A stretch of 64,000 nt of DNA from a phage, in the sequence record PZ026127.1; one strand, given 5' to 3'. Shown piece after piece: positions 45,922 to 52,125 of this stretch. The notes under the pieces were generated by a model, which had not been told where the DNA came from, made no database searches, and worked only from the letters and a program-made list of their open reading frames with translations. The first letter of the stretch is position 1. Every line of letters begins with the position of its first letter. Made by a program: the position numbers and the translations under genes.

Positions 45922-47055
45922 ATGGCTTATACCGTAGATATGGCTCCTTTGGCGGCTACGGCCGTTATTGGAGCAACAACCAATTTCACTGCGACCGGTT
46001 CCGGTGCTGCAGCTGAAGGTACCGAATCATTTGTCTGGACCGTTGATGGCGTTCCTCAATCTTCTGTGACTGCTGCAATGGATTATGTTGCTGTTGGCCC
46101 AGCAGGCAGCAAGACTATTAAAGTTGTTGCAACAACTACACCAGCGGACGGCGAACCAGAAACAGCTGAAGCCGAAACAACTTTAACTATCCAGAATAAA
46201 ACAATGCCTGCTATTACATTGACTTTAGACCCTGCCTCTGTTTCTAAAGAAGTCGGCCAATCTCAAGTTGTTACTGCTAACGTGACGGGTGCGCCTGCTG
46301 GTGCAACAATTGCTTATGTTTGGAAACGTAACACTAGCGTAATCCCAGGTCAAACTGGTAAAACTATTACTGTTACCGAATCAGCAGAAGCAAATTATAC
46401 ATTGAACTGCGAAGTTACTGTTTCTGCACCCGATTATAATAATGGCACCGCAACTAAAGGAGCGGCGGTAACTTTTGTTAAGAAAACTATGTCGGGTGTT
46501 TCTGTTAATTTAACGCCAGCCTCTATTAATGTACCTGAAGGAACTCCGGCTTCTTTTAAAGCGGACGTAGTCGGCGCTCCTGCTGGTGCTACTTTTGCCT
46601 ATTCTTGGAAGAAAGACGGTTCTCCTGTAGTTGGCACCACGGATACTCTAGCAATCGATACAAGCACTGAAGGTTCACAGGTTATTGAAGTTTCTGTTGT
46701 GGTTTCGGCGACTGATTATAACCCGGTGACTGTTACAAAAACTGGTAATGTAACAATCACGGCTAAAGTCGCTCCTGAACCAGAGGGCGAATTACCTTAC
46801 GTTCATCCGCTACCAGTTCGCAATTCGGCTTATATCTGGTGTGGTTGGTGGGTTATGGATGAAATCCAGAAAATGACTCTTGAAGGCAAAGACTGGAAAA
46901 CAGATGACCCGGATAGCCCGTATTATTTGCACCGATACACGCTTCAAAAAATGATTACCGACTATCCAGAGGTTGATGTACAAGAATCTCGTAATGGTCG
47001 AATTATTCATCGCACCGCTTTAGAAGCTGGTATTATATACGATTACGTTTACTAA
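45922..47055 (+). CDS. hoc: Hoc (highly immunogenic outer capsid protein, Ig-like repeats)
   Basis: 377 aa; repeated Ig-like segments (VTANVTGAPAGATIAYVWK / FKADVVGAPAGATFAYSWKKDG) and conserved C-terminal capsid-binding region. Confidence 0.85.
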   Translation: MAYTVDMAPLAATAVIGATTNFTATGSGAAAEGTESFVWTVDGVPQSSVTAAMDYVAVGPAGSKTIKVVATTTPADGEPETAEAETTLTIQNKTMPAITLTLDPASVSKEVGQSQVVTANVTGAPAGATIAYVWKRNTSVIPGQTGKTITVTESAEANYTLNCEVTVSAPDYNNGTATKGAAVTFVKKTMSGVSVNLTPASINVPEGTPASFKADVVGAPAGATFAYSWKKDGSPVVGTTDTLAIDTSTEGSQVIEVSVVVSATDYNPVTVTKTGNVTITAKVAPEPEGELPYVHPLPVRNSAYIWCGWWVMDEIQKMTLEGKDWKTDDPDSPYYLHRYTLQKMITDYPEVDVQESRNGRIIHRTALEAGIIYDYVY

Positions 47056-48490: not shown

Positions 48491-48498
48491 ATGATAAA

Positions 48499-48519
48499 GG
48501 GACCTTACGGTCCCTTTTT
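48499..48519. terminator. bidirectional terminator between rnlB and the gene 24 paralog
   Basis: GGGACCTTACGGTCCC then TTTTT; the minus-strand stop overlaps the U-tract. Confidence 0.65.
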
Positions 48520-49801
48520 AGTTTTTATCCAATGGGGGAAGTTTTACACCAAGATAAGAACTCAATTGACTTTGATTAGCCATTTTATCCATATCCGCCC
48601 CATCGATAATACGAGCTTCTTTGTCGTCTTTAGCGACAGTATAAGGATTCGCAGTCAATGCATATCGAGCCAATAAAGATATGGTAGGTTGCAATGAATC
48701 CGGGTCTACAATAACCTTGAATTCACCTACTGAAGTATCACCTTCATCATCAACCTCTTCGAGCCCTTCCGTATAAGGCGCATAATACAAAGATGCGACC
48801 GTCTGCCCTTCACCCATCCAGGCATTTACACCGACAATAACATAATCACACGGACTATTCATATCAGCATAAAGTGGTAGACCATTTTTAAGTATACCAT
48901 AAGCTAATTCGTCTTGGTCTTCTTTTTTCTCAACCCAACCGGATGCAGCGAGAATAGCAGCACAACGAGAAGAAGCTACTGCATAAGTACCTGCAAACGA
49001 AGTCTGGCGTTGAACAGCAGAATTCATTTCACACATATAGTAATACAAGGTACGCGCTCGGTCTTGGGCGTTATCATATTGTGGGTCTGTTAAGTTCAAG
49101 ACACCTTTCTCAGAAACTCCTTCGACTTTAAAACGAGAACTTACCGTAATTAAGGACTGTAATACGTCTTTATTAATTTCTTCAGCCATTTGAATAGCCA
49201 AAATATTGTCTATAAAGTCTGGTGCATTAAACCCGTTGGATTCTAAATCCTGGGCCAGTTCCACAGTCAAAGAAGTTTTAAGTTTACGCGATTTAACTTC
49301 AGTCTGCCACTTATCAATGCGGAACCCTGCTTCAGCAATCTCAGGATGGCCTTTTTCAAATTTATTGGTAAAGGCTGCATCAGACATCATACGAATATGG
49401 CCTGCTGCAATAGCTTCTGAAATAACTTCACTCAAATCGGTTTCAGTTGTTCCTGCAAACGGAGAAGCTTCTAATACCTTGAAAACCACACTTTCGAATT
49501 GGAACATATCACCAACAGCATATGCTTCATCTTTATCGGTGAACTCTGGAATGTTTTTACGTTCAAACATACCAATTTCGCCCGCAAAAGTGGCTCCACC
49601 GAGATAAGTCATTTTATCGTCTGGGTTTAAAACACGGACACCATATAATGCTGCAACAGGTTGAGTAGTTTTTTGTTCAGCAACAAGGGCTTTAAAAATT
49701 CTTTTATTAGTTGCCTGGGTATATGAAAGAAGATTAGGACGGGCGACCTGGTTGGCCGCCGTCAAAGTTGATTCTTGTATTAATGCATTAATCTTTTTCA
49801 T
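48518..49801 (-). CDS. head vertex protein gp24 paralog (divergent second copy)
   Basis: 427 aa; shares the gp24 core (SRKLKT.LTVELAQD.ESNGF.AP.F...EINKDVLQSLITVS, VIVDPDSLQP, YTVAKDDKEAR) but diverges elsewhere. Confidence 0.85.
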   Translation of the reverse strand: MKKINALIQESTLTAANQVARPNLLSYTQATNKRIFKALVAEQKTTQPVAALYGVRVLNPDDKMTYLGGATFAGEIGMFERKNIPEFTDKDEAYAVGDMFQFESVVFKVLEASPFAGTTETDLSEVISEAIAAGHIRMMSDAAFTNKFEKGHPEIAEAGFRIDKWQTEVKSRKLKTSLTVELAQDLESNGFNAPDFIDNILAIQMAEEINKDVLQSLITVSSRFKVEGVSEKGVLNLTDPQYDNAQDRARTLYYYMCEMNSAVQRQTSFAGTYAVASSRCAAILAASGWVEKKEDQDELAYGILKNGLPLYADMNSPCDYVIVGVNAWMGEGQTVASLYYAPYTEGLEEVDDEGDTSVGEFKVIVDPDSLQPTISLLARYALTANPYTVAKDDKEARIIDGADMDKMANQSQLSSYLGVKLPPLDKN

Positions 49802-51082
49802 TTATGCCTCGTAAATAATTGGAGGAAGTTTAACACCAAGCAGATAAGACATGTTACTCTGGCCTGCCATTAAATCCATATTAGTTGCGTCTATAACACG
49901 AGCTTCTTTATCATCTTTAGCAACGGTATACGGGTTTGCTGAAAGTGCATAACGAACCATCAGAGAAATAGCCGGTTGCAAACTATCAGGGTCTACAATA
50001 ACTTTATAGGCGCCAACATGTTCTTGGTCGTCTAAATCCAGACCTTCGGTATACGGAGCATAGAAAATAGAACCAACTACTTCATTACCACCGTAATCTT
50101 CTTTAACGCCTACGATAACATAATCTAAAGGACTATTAACATCACAGAATACAGGCAATCCGTTAATCAAATAACCATAAGCAGTTTCTGGGAGCCAAGC
50201 TTCATCTTCAGGTTTGTGTTTCAACCAACCTGAACCAGCGAGCATCGCAGCAACACGACTAGATGCGACAACAAACGTACCTGAATAAGAAGTGGTTTTC
50301 TGAATTTCAGAATTCATCTCACAAACCATTTCGTATAATTTACGTGCAGATTCTGGAGCACTGTCATAAGACAAATCGACAATACCGTTATCAGACACAC
50401 CAGTAACTTTATAGCGTTTAGATACAGTTATTAGAGACTGCAGAACGTCTTTATTAATTTCATCAGCCATTACAGTGGCTAAAAGGTCTTCTAAGAACGC
50501 AGGGGCGTCGAAGCCATTAGATTCCATGTCTTGGGCTAGTTCTACAGTCAAAGCGGTTTTAAGCTTACGGGACTTAACAGGGGCGTTCCATTTATTAACC
50601 TGGAATACTGCATTGCTAATTTCAACATCACCTGCTTCGAATTTTTCTGTGTGAGCCGCATCAGGAACCAGACGACATGTTAATGACACTAAACCTTCTT
50701 GAAGAGCATCAGCCAATTCTGTGGCGCTAGTGGACGCGAGTGGGCTTGCTTTAAGAGCCTTATAAACCACATTCTGGTACTTGAAATATTCACCCTGAGC
50801 AATCGCCTGGGCCTTATCTGTGAGTTCTGGGATAGTTTCACGGTCTTTAGAACCAACTTCACCACCATAAGAGGCACCTGTCTGGAAACTAAATTCATTA
50901 TCAGGGGTAAGATATTTGACACCATACAGTGCAGCAATAGGCTGGCTAGTACGTTGTTCGGCGATAATATCACGGTAAATCAATTTGGTTGTAGCACGGG
51001 TCAAAGCAACAAGATTAGGGCGACCCAATGAGTTGCTGGAAGTAGTTGTTGACTCGCGCAGTAATTCGTTAATCTTTGCCAT
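49802..51082 (-). CDS. 24: head vertex protein gp24
   Basis: 426 aa; MAKINELLRESTTT...GRPNLVALTRATTKLIY matches the T4 gp24 N-terminus. Confidence 0.93.
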   Translation of the reverse strand: MAKINELLRESTTTSSNSLGRPNLVALTRATTKLIYRDIIAEQRTSQPIAALYGVKYLTPDNEFSFQTGASYGGEVGSKDRETIPELTDKAQAIAQGEYFKYQNVVYKALKASPLASTSATELADALQEGLVSLTCRLVPDAAHTEKFEAGDVEISNAVFQVNKWNAPVKSRKLKTALTVELAQDMESNGFDAPAFLEDLLATVMADEINKDVLQSLITVSKRYKVTGVSDNGIVDLSYDSAPESARKLYEMVCEMNSEIQKTTSYSGTFVVASSRVAAMLAGSGWLKHKPEDEAWLPETAYGYLINGLPVFCDVNSPLDYVIVGVKEDYGGNEVVGSIFYAPYTEGLDLDDQEHVGAYKVIVDPDSLQPAISLMVRYALSANPYTVAKDDKEARVIDATNMDLMAGQSNMSYLLGVKLPPIIYEA

Positions 51083-51154: not shown

Positions 51155-51183
51155 AGACCTATCAAAACATGAGGAGATTAAAA

Positions 51184-51450
51184 ATGAACAAGTTAAACTT
51201 TATTCGTACTACTCTTTCCGCTCTTGATAAAGACATCAAAGCTCTGGTAGAAAAATTCGGTAACAATCCTAATGGTAATGCAGTGAATGCCTTAGTTAAG
51301 AAATACGAAGCCATGGCTTATGCTACCGACTTCTGGTGGAACGGTGAATACTCTACCCATACCAAAGACAAATCTGGTAACTGGCTGAAAATCCAAGAAA
51401 ATCGTATTGACTTCCGTGATATCATCAACCGTCGTGTCAAAGCAGCGTAA
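51184..51450 (+). CDS. hypothetical protein (88 aa)
   Basis: ATG 51184 after GAGGAG; track start 51169 lies in the Shine-Dalgarno. Confidence 0.55.
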   Translation: MNKLNFIRTTLSALDKDIKALVEKFGNNPNGNAVNALVKKYEAMAYATDFWWNGEYSTHTKDKSGNWLKIQENRIDFRDIINRRVKAA

Positions 51451-51453
51451 AAT

Positions 51454-52125
51454 ATGAATTATTTAATTTACAAAATAACCAATCTCATTAATAACAAGAT
51501 TTATGTTGGAGCTCATGCCACTACAGATGTTAACGATTCTTATATGGGCTCCGGGGTTAACATAGTAAAATCCATAAAGAAATACGGTTTAGAGAATTTT
51601 AAAAAGGAAATCCTTTTCAATTTCGAAACATCTGAAGAGATGTATGCTAAGGAAGCCGAACTAGTTGACGAGGCTTTTGTCATGAGAACGGATACTTATA
51701 ACGCAGCCTTAGGCGGCAAGGGTAATCCTGTTATAGTAGCTTTACAGGAACCTGGGTATCGTGAGATGTTATCCGAAAAGACAAAAGCCGGCATGACTGA
51801 AGAAGTACGAGCAAGACTTTCAAAAATGAAAATGGGTATGAAATATTCTCAAGAAACCCAAGACAAAAAATCAAAAGCTATGAAAGACCTCTATAAAACT
51901 AAAAGCCATCCCAGAACCGGTAAGAAACACAGCGAAGAATCCAAGGCTAAAATTAGAGCGGGTTCTAATAAAGGTCAAAAGATTGTTTTTGTTGATATTA
52001 TGATTAAAGGTCTTAAATTCTCCCATTATGATGATGCAGCAAAACATTTTAACGTGAGCGCCAAAACCATCCGTAATTGGATTAAAGAAACTAGACCACA
52101 ATTTGCAGATTGCTATAAGGTGTAG
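51454..52125 (+). CDS. GIY-YIG homing endonuclease (SegD-like by position between genes 24 and 23)
   Basis: 223 aa; N-terminal GIY-YIG motif YLIYKITNLINNKIYVGAH, Lys/Ser-rich linker, C-terminal DNA-binding-like region SAKTIRNWIKE. Confidence 0.8.
   Translation: MNYLIYKITNLINNKIYVGAHATTDVNDSYMGSGVNIVKSIKKYGLENFKKEILFNFETSEEMYAKEAELVDEAFVMRTDTYNAALGGKGNPVIVALQEPGYREMLSEKTKAGMTEEVRARLSKMKMGMKYSQETQDKKSKAMKDLYKTKSHPRTGKKHSEESKAKIRAGSNKGQKIVFVDIMIKGLKFSHYDDAAKHFNVSAKTIRNWIKETRPQFADCYKV

Follow-up and report, generated by a model that had tools for sequence, protein, structure and literature searches.

The gene 24 locus and its described relatives

T4 head assembly is the textbook model of a capsid with one vertex protein, gp24, and a large set of close relatives of T4 keeps a strongly conserved second one. 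Here we describe such a locus in a 64,000-nucleotide (nt) stretch of phage DNA (sequence record PZ026127.1), referred to throughout as the window, which comes from a Dhakavirus, a JS98-like coliphage of the T4 type. Two capsid vertex genes lie side by side on the minus strand of the window. The upstream gene, of the T4 gp24 orthologue type, is termed 24a (49802-51082, 426 amino acids) and the downstream paralogue is termed 24b (48518-49801, 427 amino acids); a-type and b-type denote the corresponding lineages. The reading preferred here, to which we assign a probability of about 0.6, is that the pair is an old, co-inherited two-gene vertex cassette in which a supplies the canonical penton protein, which is essential, and b an auxiliary but conserved paralogue of it, the single gene of T4 being the secondary state.

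As a feature the gene pair is already known, having been annotated since the JS98 genome, and is ordinary as a flag. In JS98 (EF469154) the two genes are labelled '24a' and '24b', gp24 head vertex protein. The same pair appears as 24(1) and 24(2) in VR7, as capsid vertex protein I and II in VR5 and VR20, and as head vertex protein I and II in CGG4-1; Marfavirus F48 is annotated with two capsid vertex proteins. The abstract of the 2004 JS98 paper (J Bacteriol 186:8276) is said to mention a duplication of gene 24 in that phage. The window holds the same genes as JS98, VR7, VR5, VR20 and CGG4-1, in identical order and with an identical junction, and the differences are allelic only. A megablast search with the 2565-bp pair matched 89 phage records, 81 of them in one place covering at least 80% of the query. 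The best DNA matches were the Dhakaviruses IME281 (98.6%), LHE83 (97.9%), IME08 (96.4%) and JS98 (95.9%).

The locus resembles that of T4 gp24 (PDB 1YUE, 5VF3 and 7VS5) in the length of the proteins (426 and 427 versus 427 amino acids), the slot between g23 and rnlB, the upstream late promoter and the Glu10 motif. However, T4 has one gene where there are two here, and 24b carries 15 fixed differences from all a-types as well as insertions and deletions in loops. A second comparison is with gp23 and gp24 themselves. In both cases a duplicate of a capsid protein would be specialised for a subset of capsomers, and the specialised copy is evolutionarily dispensable. Yet gp23 and gp24 are set apart by an identity of only ~21%, a 65-residue propeptide and assembly as hexamer versus pentamer (PMC10580926, PMC9546572), whereas 24a and 24b are 56% identical and share the same architecture. 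Any positional specialisation must therefore be much subtler than that between gp23 and gp24.

A six-frame list of open reading frames (ORFs) returned the two adjacent minus-strand ORFs exactly where the first-pass annotation of this DNA had placed them, and both proved to be intact, full-length gp24 paralogues, as it had proposed. The two proteins align over their entire length (BLASTP, 240/428 identities or 56%, 76% positives, E = 1e-179), both match Pfam PF07068 (Gp23 family) end to end (331 and 329 bits for 24a and 24b, respectively) and both fall into phrog_138. NCBIfam has no model for either protein and PHROGs has no separate family for the b-type. Homology to gp24 is full-length and clearly stronger than that to gp23, as shown for 24b, for which the match to the crystallised T4 gp24 (1YUE) spans residues 1-424 with E = 1e-149 and that to gp23 chains residues 156-390 only, with E ~1e-11. 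The upstream copy is indeed the T4-like one, since 24a is 69% identical to T4 gp24 and 24b 57%. Given 57-69% full-length identity to a solved structure, the gp24 fold of either protein is not in question. The gene order is g20-67-68-21-22-23-(orf, segD)-24a-24b, followed by the convergent rnlB, which places the pair in the gp24-type position of the late head-gene cluster, downstream of g23.

Age of the gene pair

Identities between the proteins bear on the age of the pair. While 24a is 69% identical to T4 gp24, it is only 57% identical to 24b, and the gp24 of Jiaodavirus is ~64% identical to both copies. It follows that b did not split from a after the divergence of T4 and JS98. In neighbour-joining trees, all downstream copies formed a single b-clade with 100% bootstrap support. 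All upstream copies were united with the single genes of T4, Karamvirus, Moonvirus, PEi20, Pectobacterium PM2, Serratia 4S, EcS1 and RZ/UGJNEcP4 in an a-clade (99.8-100%). Within the a-clade, the upstream copy of an uncultured two-copy contig (L023) was sister to (Karamvirus,(Moonvirus,T4)) with 100% support. The group of Erwinia phage FBB1 was basal within the a-clade and within the b-clade alike, and the arrangement (Marfa,(Gelderland,Dhaka)) was mirrored in both. This clade structure, together with the placement of L023, makes the a/b pair older than the crown of the a-clade. It indicates that the pair predates the split of T4-type and JS98-type vertex genes, and that it is old and widely shared rather than a recent duplication. 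The T4-type single genes would then probably reflect loss of b, or grafting or replacement of the cassette by recombination. A tree of gp23, considered as a proxy for the species tree, was set aside because the protein is too conserved, with deep nodes supported at 20-70%.

The implicit model of the first-pass annotation was different: a new, lineage-specific 'second round' of vertex protein duplication in the JS98 group, after which the downstream copy diverged fast. Such a model would accommodate the side-by-side position, shared orientation and similar length of the two genes, as well as the long b stem and the concentration of fixed changes in b. However, it is highly improbable on the remaining evidence. 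The three identities given above violate the distances expected of a recent duplication, and an a-clade that includes T4 excludes b at 99.8-100% bootstrap; 24a groups with the gp24 of T4, Karamvirus and Moonvirus to the exclusion of 24b (100% bootstrap). Moreover, orthologous pairs are found in Marfavirus, Gelderlandvirus, Kanagawavirus CIP9, Erwinia phage FBB1 and seven uncultured contigs, so that the pair recurs in distant uncultured lineages. A recent duplication in the JS98 group is refuted by these clade supports, and the existing annotations of JS98, VR7 and VR5 likewise contradict its novelty.

Distribution of b-type genes

A tblastn search with 24b found gp24 in 1419 of 50,697 phage records, at 1538 places, which corresponds to ~119 records with two places. 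Matches of b-type strength (E <= 1e-180) were present in 114 phage records. The carriers include Dhakavirus, Gaprivervirus (VR7, VR20, VR25 and VR26), Gelderlandvirus (S16, Melville and STML-198) and Marfavirus, together with Kanagawavirus CIP9, its relatives among Enterobacter and Kosakonia phages, and a single phage each of Yersinia and Proteus. Further b-type proteins, with identities down to 65%, were found in a collection of 5.8 billion proteins, and that of Erwinia phage FBB1 is among them. Seven distinct uncultured contigs (8 loci, L018-L024) all have b directly downstream of a, in the order 23 - a - b. In the window, 24b likewise lies immediately downstream of an a-type gene 24, with a junction within the -4 to +1 nt range of the b-type. 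Genomes with an a-type gene only are the majority. No b-only genome was found down to 65% identity in the 50,697 phage records and the 5.8-billion-protein collection.

Erwinia phage FBB1 (P0018/P0071) and the Logan contigs L018-L022 make up a deep-branching, mostly uncultured T4-like group. The upstream gp24 of this group has an N-terminus longer by 3-4 residues (MSKxYKINKLLRES). In three of its four contig lineages (L018/L019, L020 and L022, but not L021), ORFs of ~340 and ~165 amino acids without a Pfam hit are located between b and rnlB.

Exchange of vertex cassettes and the origin of b

The locus can also differ between otherwise very similar phages. In Escherichia phage UGJNEcP4 (OV877765.1, locus L007) the flanks are those of a Dhakavirus and close to those of the window at the DNA level (g23 97.4%, rnlB 94.0%, 24.3 98.6%), and the gp23 proteins are 98.8% identical. 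Between these flanks, however, UGJNEcP4 has a single gene 24 (L007 2001-3281) with 68% DNA identity to 24a, the product of which is 92% identical to the gp24 of RZ (NC_070780.1, locus L015). RZ, a Gaprivervirus, itself has a single gene 24 (L015 1501-2781), whereas VR7, the type Gaprivervirus, has the pair. A second case is found in Kanagawavirus. The pair of Enterobacter phage CIP9 (NC_048849.1, locus L026, 464-3026) is close to that of Dhakavirus (a 86% and b 82% identity), whereas the Edwardsiella phage PEi20 (P0114) has a single gene only 71% identical to the a copy of CIP9. These two sets of phages show vertex cassettes exchanged between co-infecting T4-like phages, and the UGJNEcP4 cassette implies that a near-identical gp23 lattice can be closed by a one-gene or a two-gene cassette. 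It was also considered whether the UGJNEcP4 gene is a 24a/24b chimera left by unequal crossing-over. This was rejected, as the gene is uniformly ~68% identical to 24a and ~54% to 24b, and 92% to RZ, the pattern of a cassette replacement.

Exchange of this kind bears on where b came from. Rather than arising by duplication in place, b could be the ordinary gp24 of an unsampled T4-like lineage that recombined behind a resident gene 24, the resulting cassette then spreading horizontally. Frequent exchange at the locus, as in UGJNEcP4 and in CIP9 versus PEi20, would fit such a capture. So would the trees, in which a, b and the Jiaoda/Teguna/Acinetobacter clade form a trichotomy and the crown of b is less deep than that of a (path ~0.17 versus ~0.28). 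However, no single-copy b-type lineage was seen down to 65% identity, and an a-type gene lies immediately upstream in every b context examined. The distribution of changes also differs from that of an ordinary orthologue. At otherwise conserved sites b has 14-25 autapomorphies, compared with 0-9 in a and 0-3 in the Jiaoda/Teguna/Acinetobacter clade, the pattern of a released duplicate. The outgroups side with a at 13 of the 15 fixed a/b differences, and the b stem branch of the neighbour-joining tree is 0.183 long, as against 0.059 for the a stem. Because of the excess of b autapomorphies and the agreement of the outgroups with a, a duplication followed by a burst of change in b is favoured, and capture of a foreign gp24 appears unlikely.

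Integrity, selection and predicted processing of both copies

Selection was examined in seven two-copy genomes, namely the window, JS98, JS10, Bp7, VR5, a Gelderlandvirus-labelled phage and Marfavirus F48. The ratio of non-synonymous to synonymous divergence (dN/dS), calculated by the Nei-Gojobori method for unsaturated comparisons, was 0.04-0.08 for 24a and 0.05-0.075 for 24b among Dhakaviruses. Ratios this low mean that purifying selection on both copies is strong. The identity between a and b is constant at 55-57% in 7/7 genomes, and therefore neither decay nor gene conversion is evident.

Both copies have the length of ~427 amino acids typical of gp24 and a predicted propeptide of only 10 residues. 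The gp24 of T4 loses 10 residues to the gp21 protease, and the mature gp24* begins at residue 11 (PMC9546572); the mature T4 gp24 chains deposited in the PDB also start at this residue. The N-termini of the window proteins read MAKINELLRE-S (24a) and MKKINALIQE-S (24b), each with a putative gp21 cleavage motif after Glu10 (marked by the hyphen). The motif, (L/I)(L/I)xE-S, is kept in all 35 aligned a, b and single-copy sequences. It is thus probable that 24a and 24b are both trimmed by the gp21 prohead protease after Glu10, and 24b is under constraint and presumably processed as a structural protein, not a relic.

The opposite possibility, that 24b is a decaying pseudogene or that a sequencing or assembly error at the junction makes one gene look like two, can be given next to no credence. 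The unusual zero-nucleotide spacing of the two genes might raise such a suspicion, and nothing else does. The ORF is intact in all genomes examined, the dN/dS of 24b is ~0.06, a b-type gene occurs in 114 independent records, and the pair is present in 81 independently sequenced records (at least 80% coverage). Nor is the pair a mis-assembled repeat, as 24a and 24b are only 62% identical in DNA. On these grounds a pseudogene or artefact is refuted.

A separate observation concerns synonymous divergence (dS), which in the same pairs of Dhakavirus genomes is consistently higher for 24b (1.0-1.25) than for 24a (0.5-0.88). This suggests recombination breakpoints inside the cassette, such that a and b alleles may have different histories within the genus.

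Operon architecture

An exact pattern search located a perfect T4-type late promoter consensus, TATAAATA, at 51118-51111 on the minus strand, 28 nt upstream of the 24a ATG. Exact matches to this motif number 16 in the window against 6.3 expected. An AAGGA ribosome-binding site lies between the promoter and 24a (51094-51090). No second late promoter motif, with one mismatch or fewer, was found between the 51118-51111 match and the start of 24b. The coupling junction between the genes (49799-49810, minus strand) reads TAC GAG GCA TAA-ATG AAA. The 24a stop codon (TAA, 49804-49802) is followed directly by the 24b ATG (49801-49799), with a spacing of 0 nt, and a GAGG (49810-49807) sits inside the last 24a codons, 5 nt upstream of that ATG. 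This is the junction that the first-pass annotation had described, including the Shine-Dalgarno sequence within 24a. The stop-start spacing stays within -4 to +1 nt in 10 further two-copy genomes and contigs, which makes 11 with the window, and loci L018-L024 show this range too. Directly 3' of the 24b stop is a G+C-rich hairpin with a 9-bp stem (48496-48517), shared with the convergent rnlB, which is a probable bidirectional terminator closing the 24a-24b operon.

The promoter, the hairpin and the conserved stop-start spacing together support a bicistronic late operon, in which 24a and 24b would be transcribed from the promoter ahead of 24a and translation of 24b would be coupled at the TAA-ATG junction. 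The earlier proposal of co-expression is thus consistent with the single late promoter, the stop-start junction and the single hairpin after 24b.

Differences between a and b in structural context

Fifteen differences between a and b are fixed, and seven of these fall within residues 25-57 (V25L, A26S, T32N, L34R, Y36F, K56R and Y57V). The others include Y72F, Y108F, Y267F, P244Q and E335Q. The window 24b has all b diagnostic residues, which in T4 numbering are L25, S26, N32, R34, F36, R56, V57, F72, F108, Q244, F267 and Q335. The divergence of 24b had been placed in its N-terminal third and C-terminal tail. This description stands only in part: the fixed b-specific changes do cluster at residues 25-57, but differences extend over the full length of 24b. 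Variability is highest, in all pairs compared and including 24a versus T4, in the insertion-domain region (residues ~61-150). Loops also differ. In the loop that corresponds to T4 348-359, most b-type proteins, the window 24b among them, are longer by an acidic insertion of 3 residues. The crown b-types, again with the window 24b, gain 3 residues near T4 residue 239 and lack 4 residues near T4 residue 296.

In the prolate head of T4, residues 22-29 of gp24* refold upon expansion, and after expansion residues 26-29 pair, as parallel beta strands, with the I-domain linker of the neighbouring subunit within their pentamer (PMC9546572). Residues 11-20 extend onto the neighbouring gp23 hexamer, and the loop 348-359 is flexible in vertex-bound gp24* (PMC9546572). 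Set against this structure, the b-specific changes at residues 25 and 26 lie within segment 22-29, and b-specific positions as a whole affect a contact inside the pentamer, the arm between pentamer and hexamer, and a flexible loop. The pattern would fit a preference of a and b for like-with-like pentamers, or different surface properties of the two.

A proposed role for the second copy

From these data the following scheme is proposed for the two-gene cassette. 24a and 24b would be transcribed late from one promoter, with 24b translated by coupling, and gp21 would trim both proteins after Glu10. Both would then most likely form pentameric capsomers at the five-fold vertices other than the portal, given their full-length homology to T4 gp24 and the strong purifying selection on every domain. 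b would be an auxiliary vertex subunit alongside a, perhaps confined to a subset of vertices or built into mixed pentamers, and could tune the stability or surface properties of the capsid; it would not be an independent replacement, since b is never found without a, while a is often found without b. The pair would be inherited or exchanged as a unit, and b repeatedly lost or swapped out, including in the lineage leading to T4 gene 24.

A number of points weigh against this scheme. The 55 gp24* subunits of T4 are all structurally equivalent (PMC9546572), and therefore there is no known geometric need for two vertex types. As judged from the single-gene cassettes on Dhakavirus (UGJNEcP4) and Gaprivervirus (RZ) backbones, the b protein is dispensable for this gp23 lattice. 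Since cassettes move between genera, a 'loss in T4' concerns the genealogy of the gene and not the tree of genomes. The trees were calculated by neighbour-joining on corrected distances with 200-500 bootstraps, not by maximum likelihood. For the branching of the Jiaoda/Teguna/Acinetobacter clade relative to the a- and b-clades, each option received only 17-27% bootstrap support and informative sites were divided ~1:1:1, so that duplication in situ and capture of a foreign gp24 are not formally separable. Lastly, the searchable literature yielded no virion mass spectrometry or cryo-electron microscopy of any two-copy phage, and the PDB no b-type structure. The proteomes of Morganella phage MP1 and Jiaodavirus are from phages in which only one vertex protein has been reported or found.

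A different role for 24b would be that it is expressed but is no stoichiometric vertex subunit, acting only during assembly or being kept as a variant because of host defences that sense the vertex protein. The capsid vertex protein of T6 is required to trigger type IV Thoeris, and the substitution A380V escapes (PMC13243611). This places vertex genes under immune selection, which could drive their diversification and the swapping of cassettes, and the evolutionary dispensability of b would agree with such a role. However, A380 is conserved in a and b, so b is no obvious escape variant, and an extra copy would not hide an a-type protein that is sensed. Moreover, 24b is under purifying selection along the whole chain and has kept the protease site and all capsomer domains, which makes such a role rather improbable. 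Capsid stability and immune sensing are both plausible pressures on the locus, given that T4 gp24 can be bypassed by mutations in gp23 (PMC3012670), that phages without gp24 are less robust (PMC10580926), that cyanomyoviruses lack g24 (PMC2984593), and that T6 is sensed by Thoeris. Neither pressure alone explains the keeping of two copies.

The auxiliary-subunit scheme can be extended, tentatively, to the T-even-type phages as a whole. It is possible, though doubtful, that these phages ancestrally had two vertex proteins, T4 being a secondary one-penton simplification, and that in the ~114 two-copy phages b takes up specific vertices among the 11, such as the apical one or those of one cap ring, or joins a in mixed pentamers. 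If this were true, there would be capsids with non-equivalent corners. The presence of both proteins in the shell would make the corners chemically distinct, with a bearing on stability, antigenicity and vertex-sensing defences such as type IV Thoeris in T6. Some of the two-copy phages, the JS98 group and S16 among them, have been applied or suggested as therapeutic agents. Single- and double-gene cassettes on near-identical backbones, as in UGJNEcP4 versus IME281 or JS98, provide a ready-made natural comparison.

Neighbouring genes

Beyond the pair, the window differs from the JS98 locus in two respects: a homing endonuclease of the SegD type lies between g23 and 24a, and Hoc is longer. The endonuclease (51454-52125, plus strand) is of the GIY-YIG/NUMOD3 type, lies on the opposite strand to 24a in the same slot as T4 segD, and shares 58.7% identity with T4 SegD across the entire protein. 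It is not present in IME281, the closest relative, or in JS98, JS10, Bp7 and VR5. IME08 and IME341 have it at 88% DNA identity, and several other T4-like coliphages and Shigella phages at ~86%. This patchy presence among relatives suggests a mobile insertion, polymorphic within the Dhakaviruses. The same interval contains a 93-amino acid ORF (51169-51450, plus strand; phrog_6003, E = 5e-49), conserved antisense between g23 and g24. This ORF also occurs in JS98 (orf173), VR5, VR7, UGJNEcP4 and RZ, whereas the gap in T4 holds segD only.

The Hoc of the window (45922-47055, plus strand) has 377 amino acids and aligns in full length with T4 Hoc at 57.8% identity. In JS98 and IME281, Hoc has 282 amino acids and matches only residues 97-377, making the window protein longer by ~95 amino acids, probably through one additional N-terminal Ig-like domain. 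In VR7 (L025 5534-6278) and VR5 (L002 1-986), a gene annotated as encoding a protein with collagen triple-helix repeats is found downstream of 24.3, where JS98 and T4 have Hoc.

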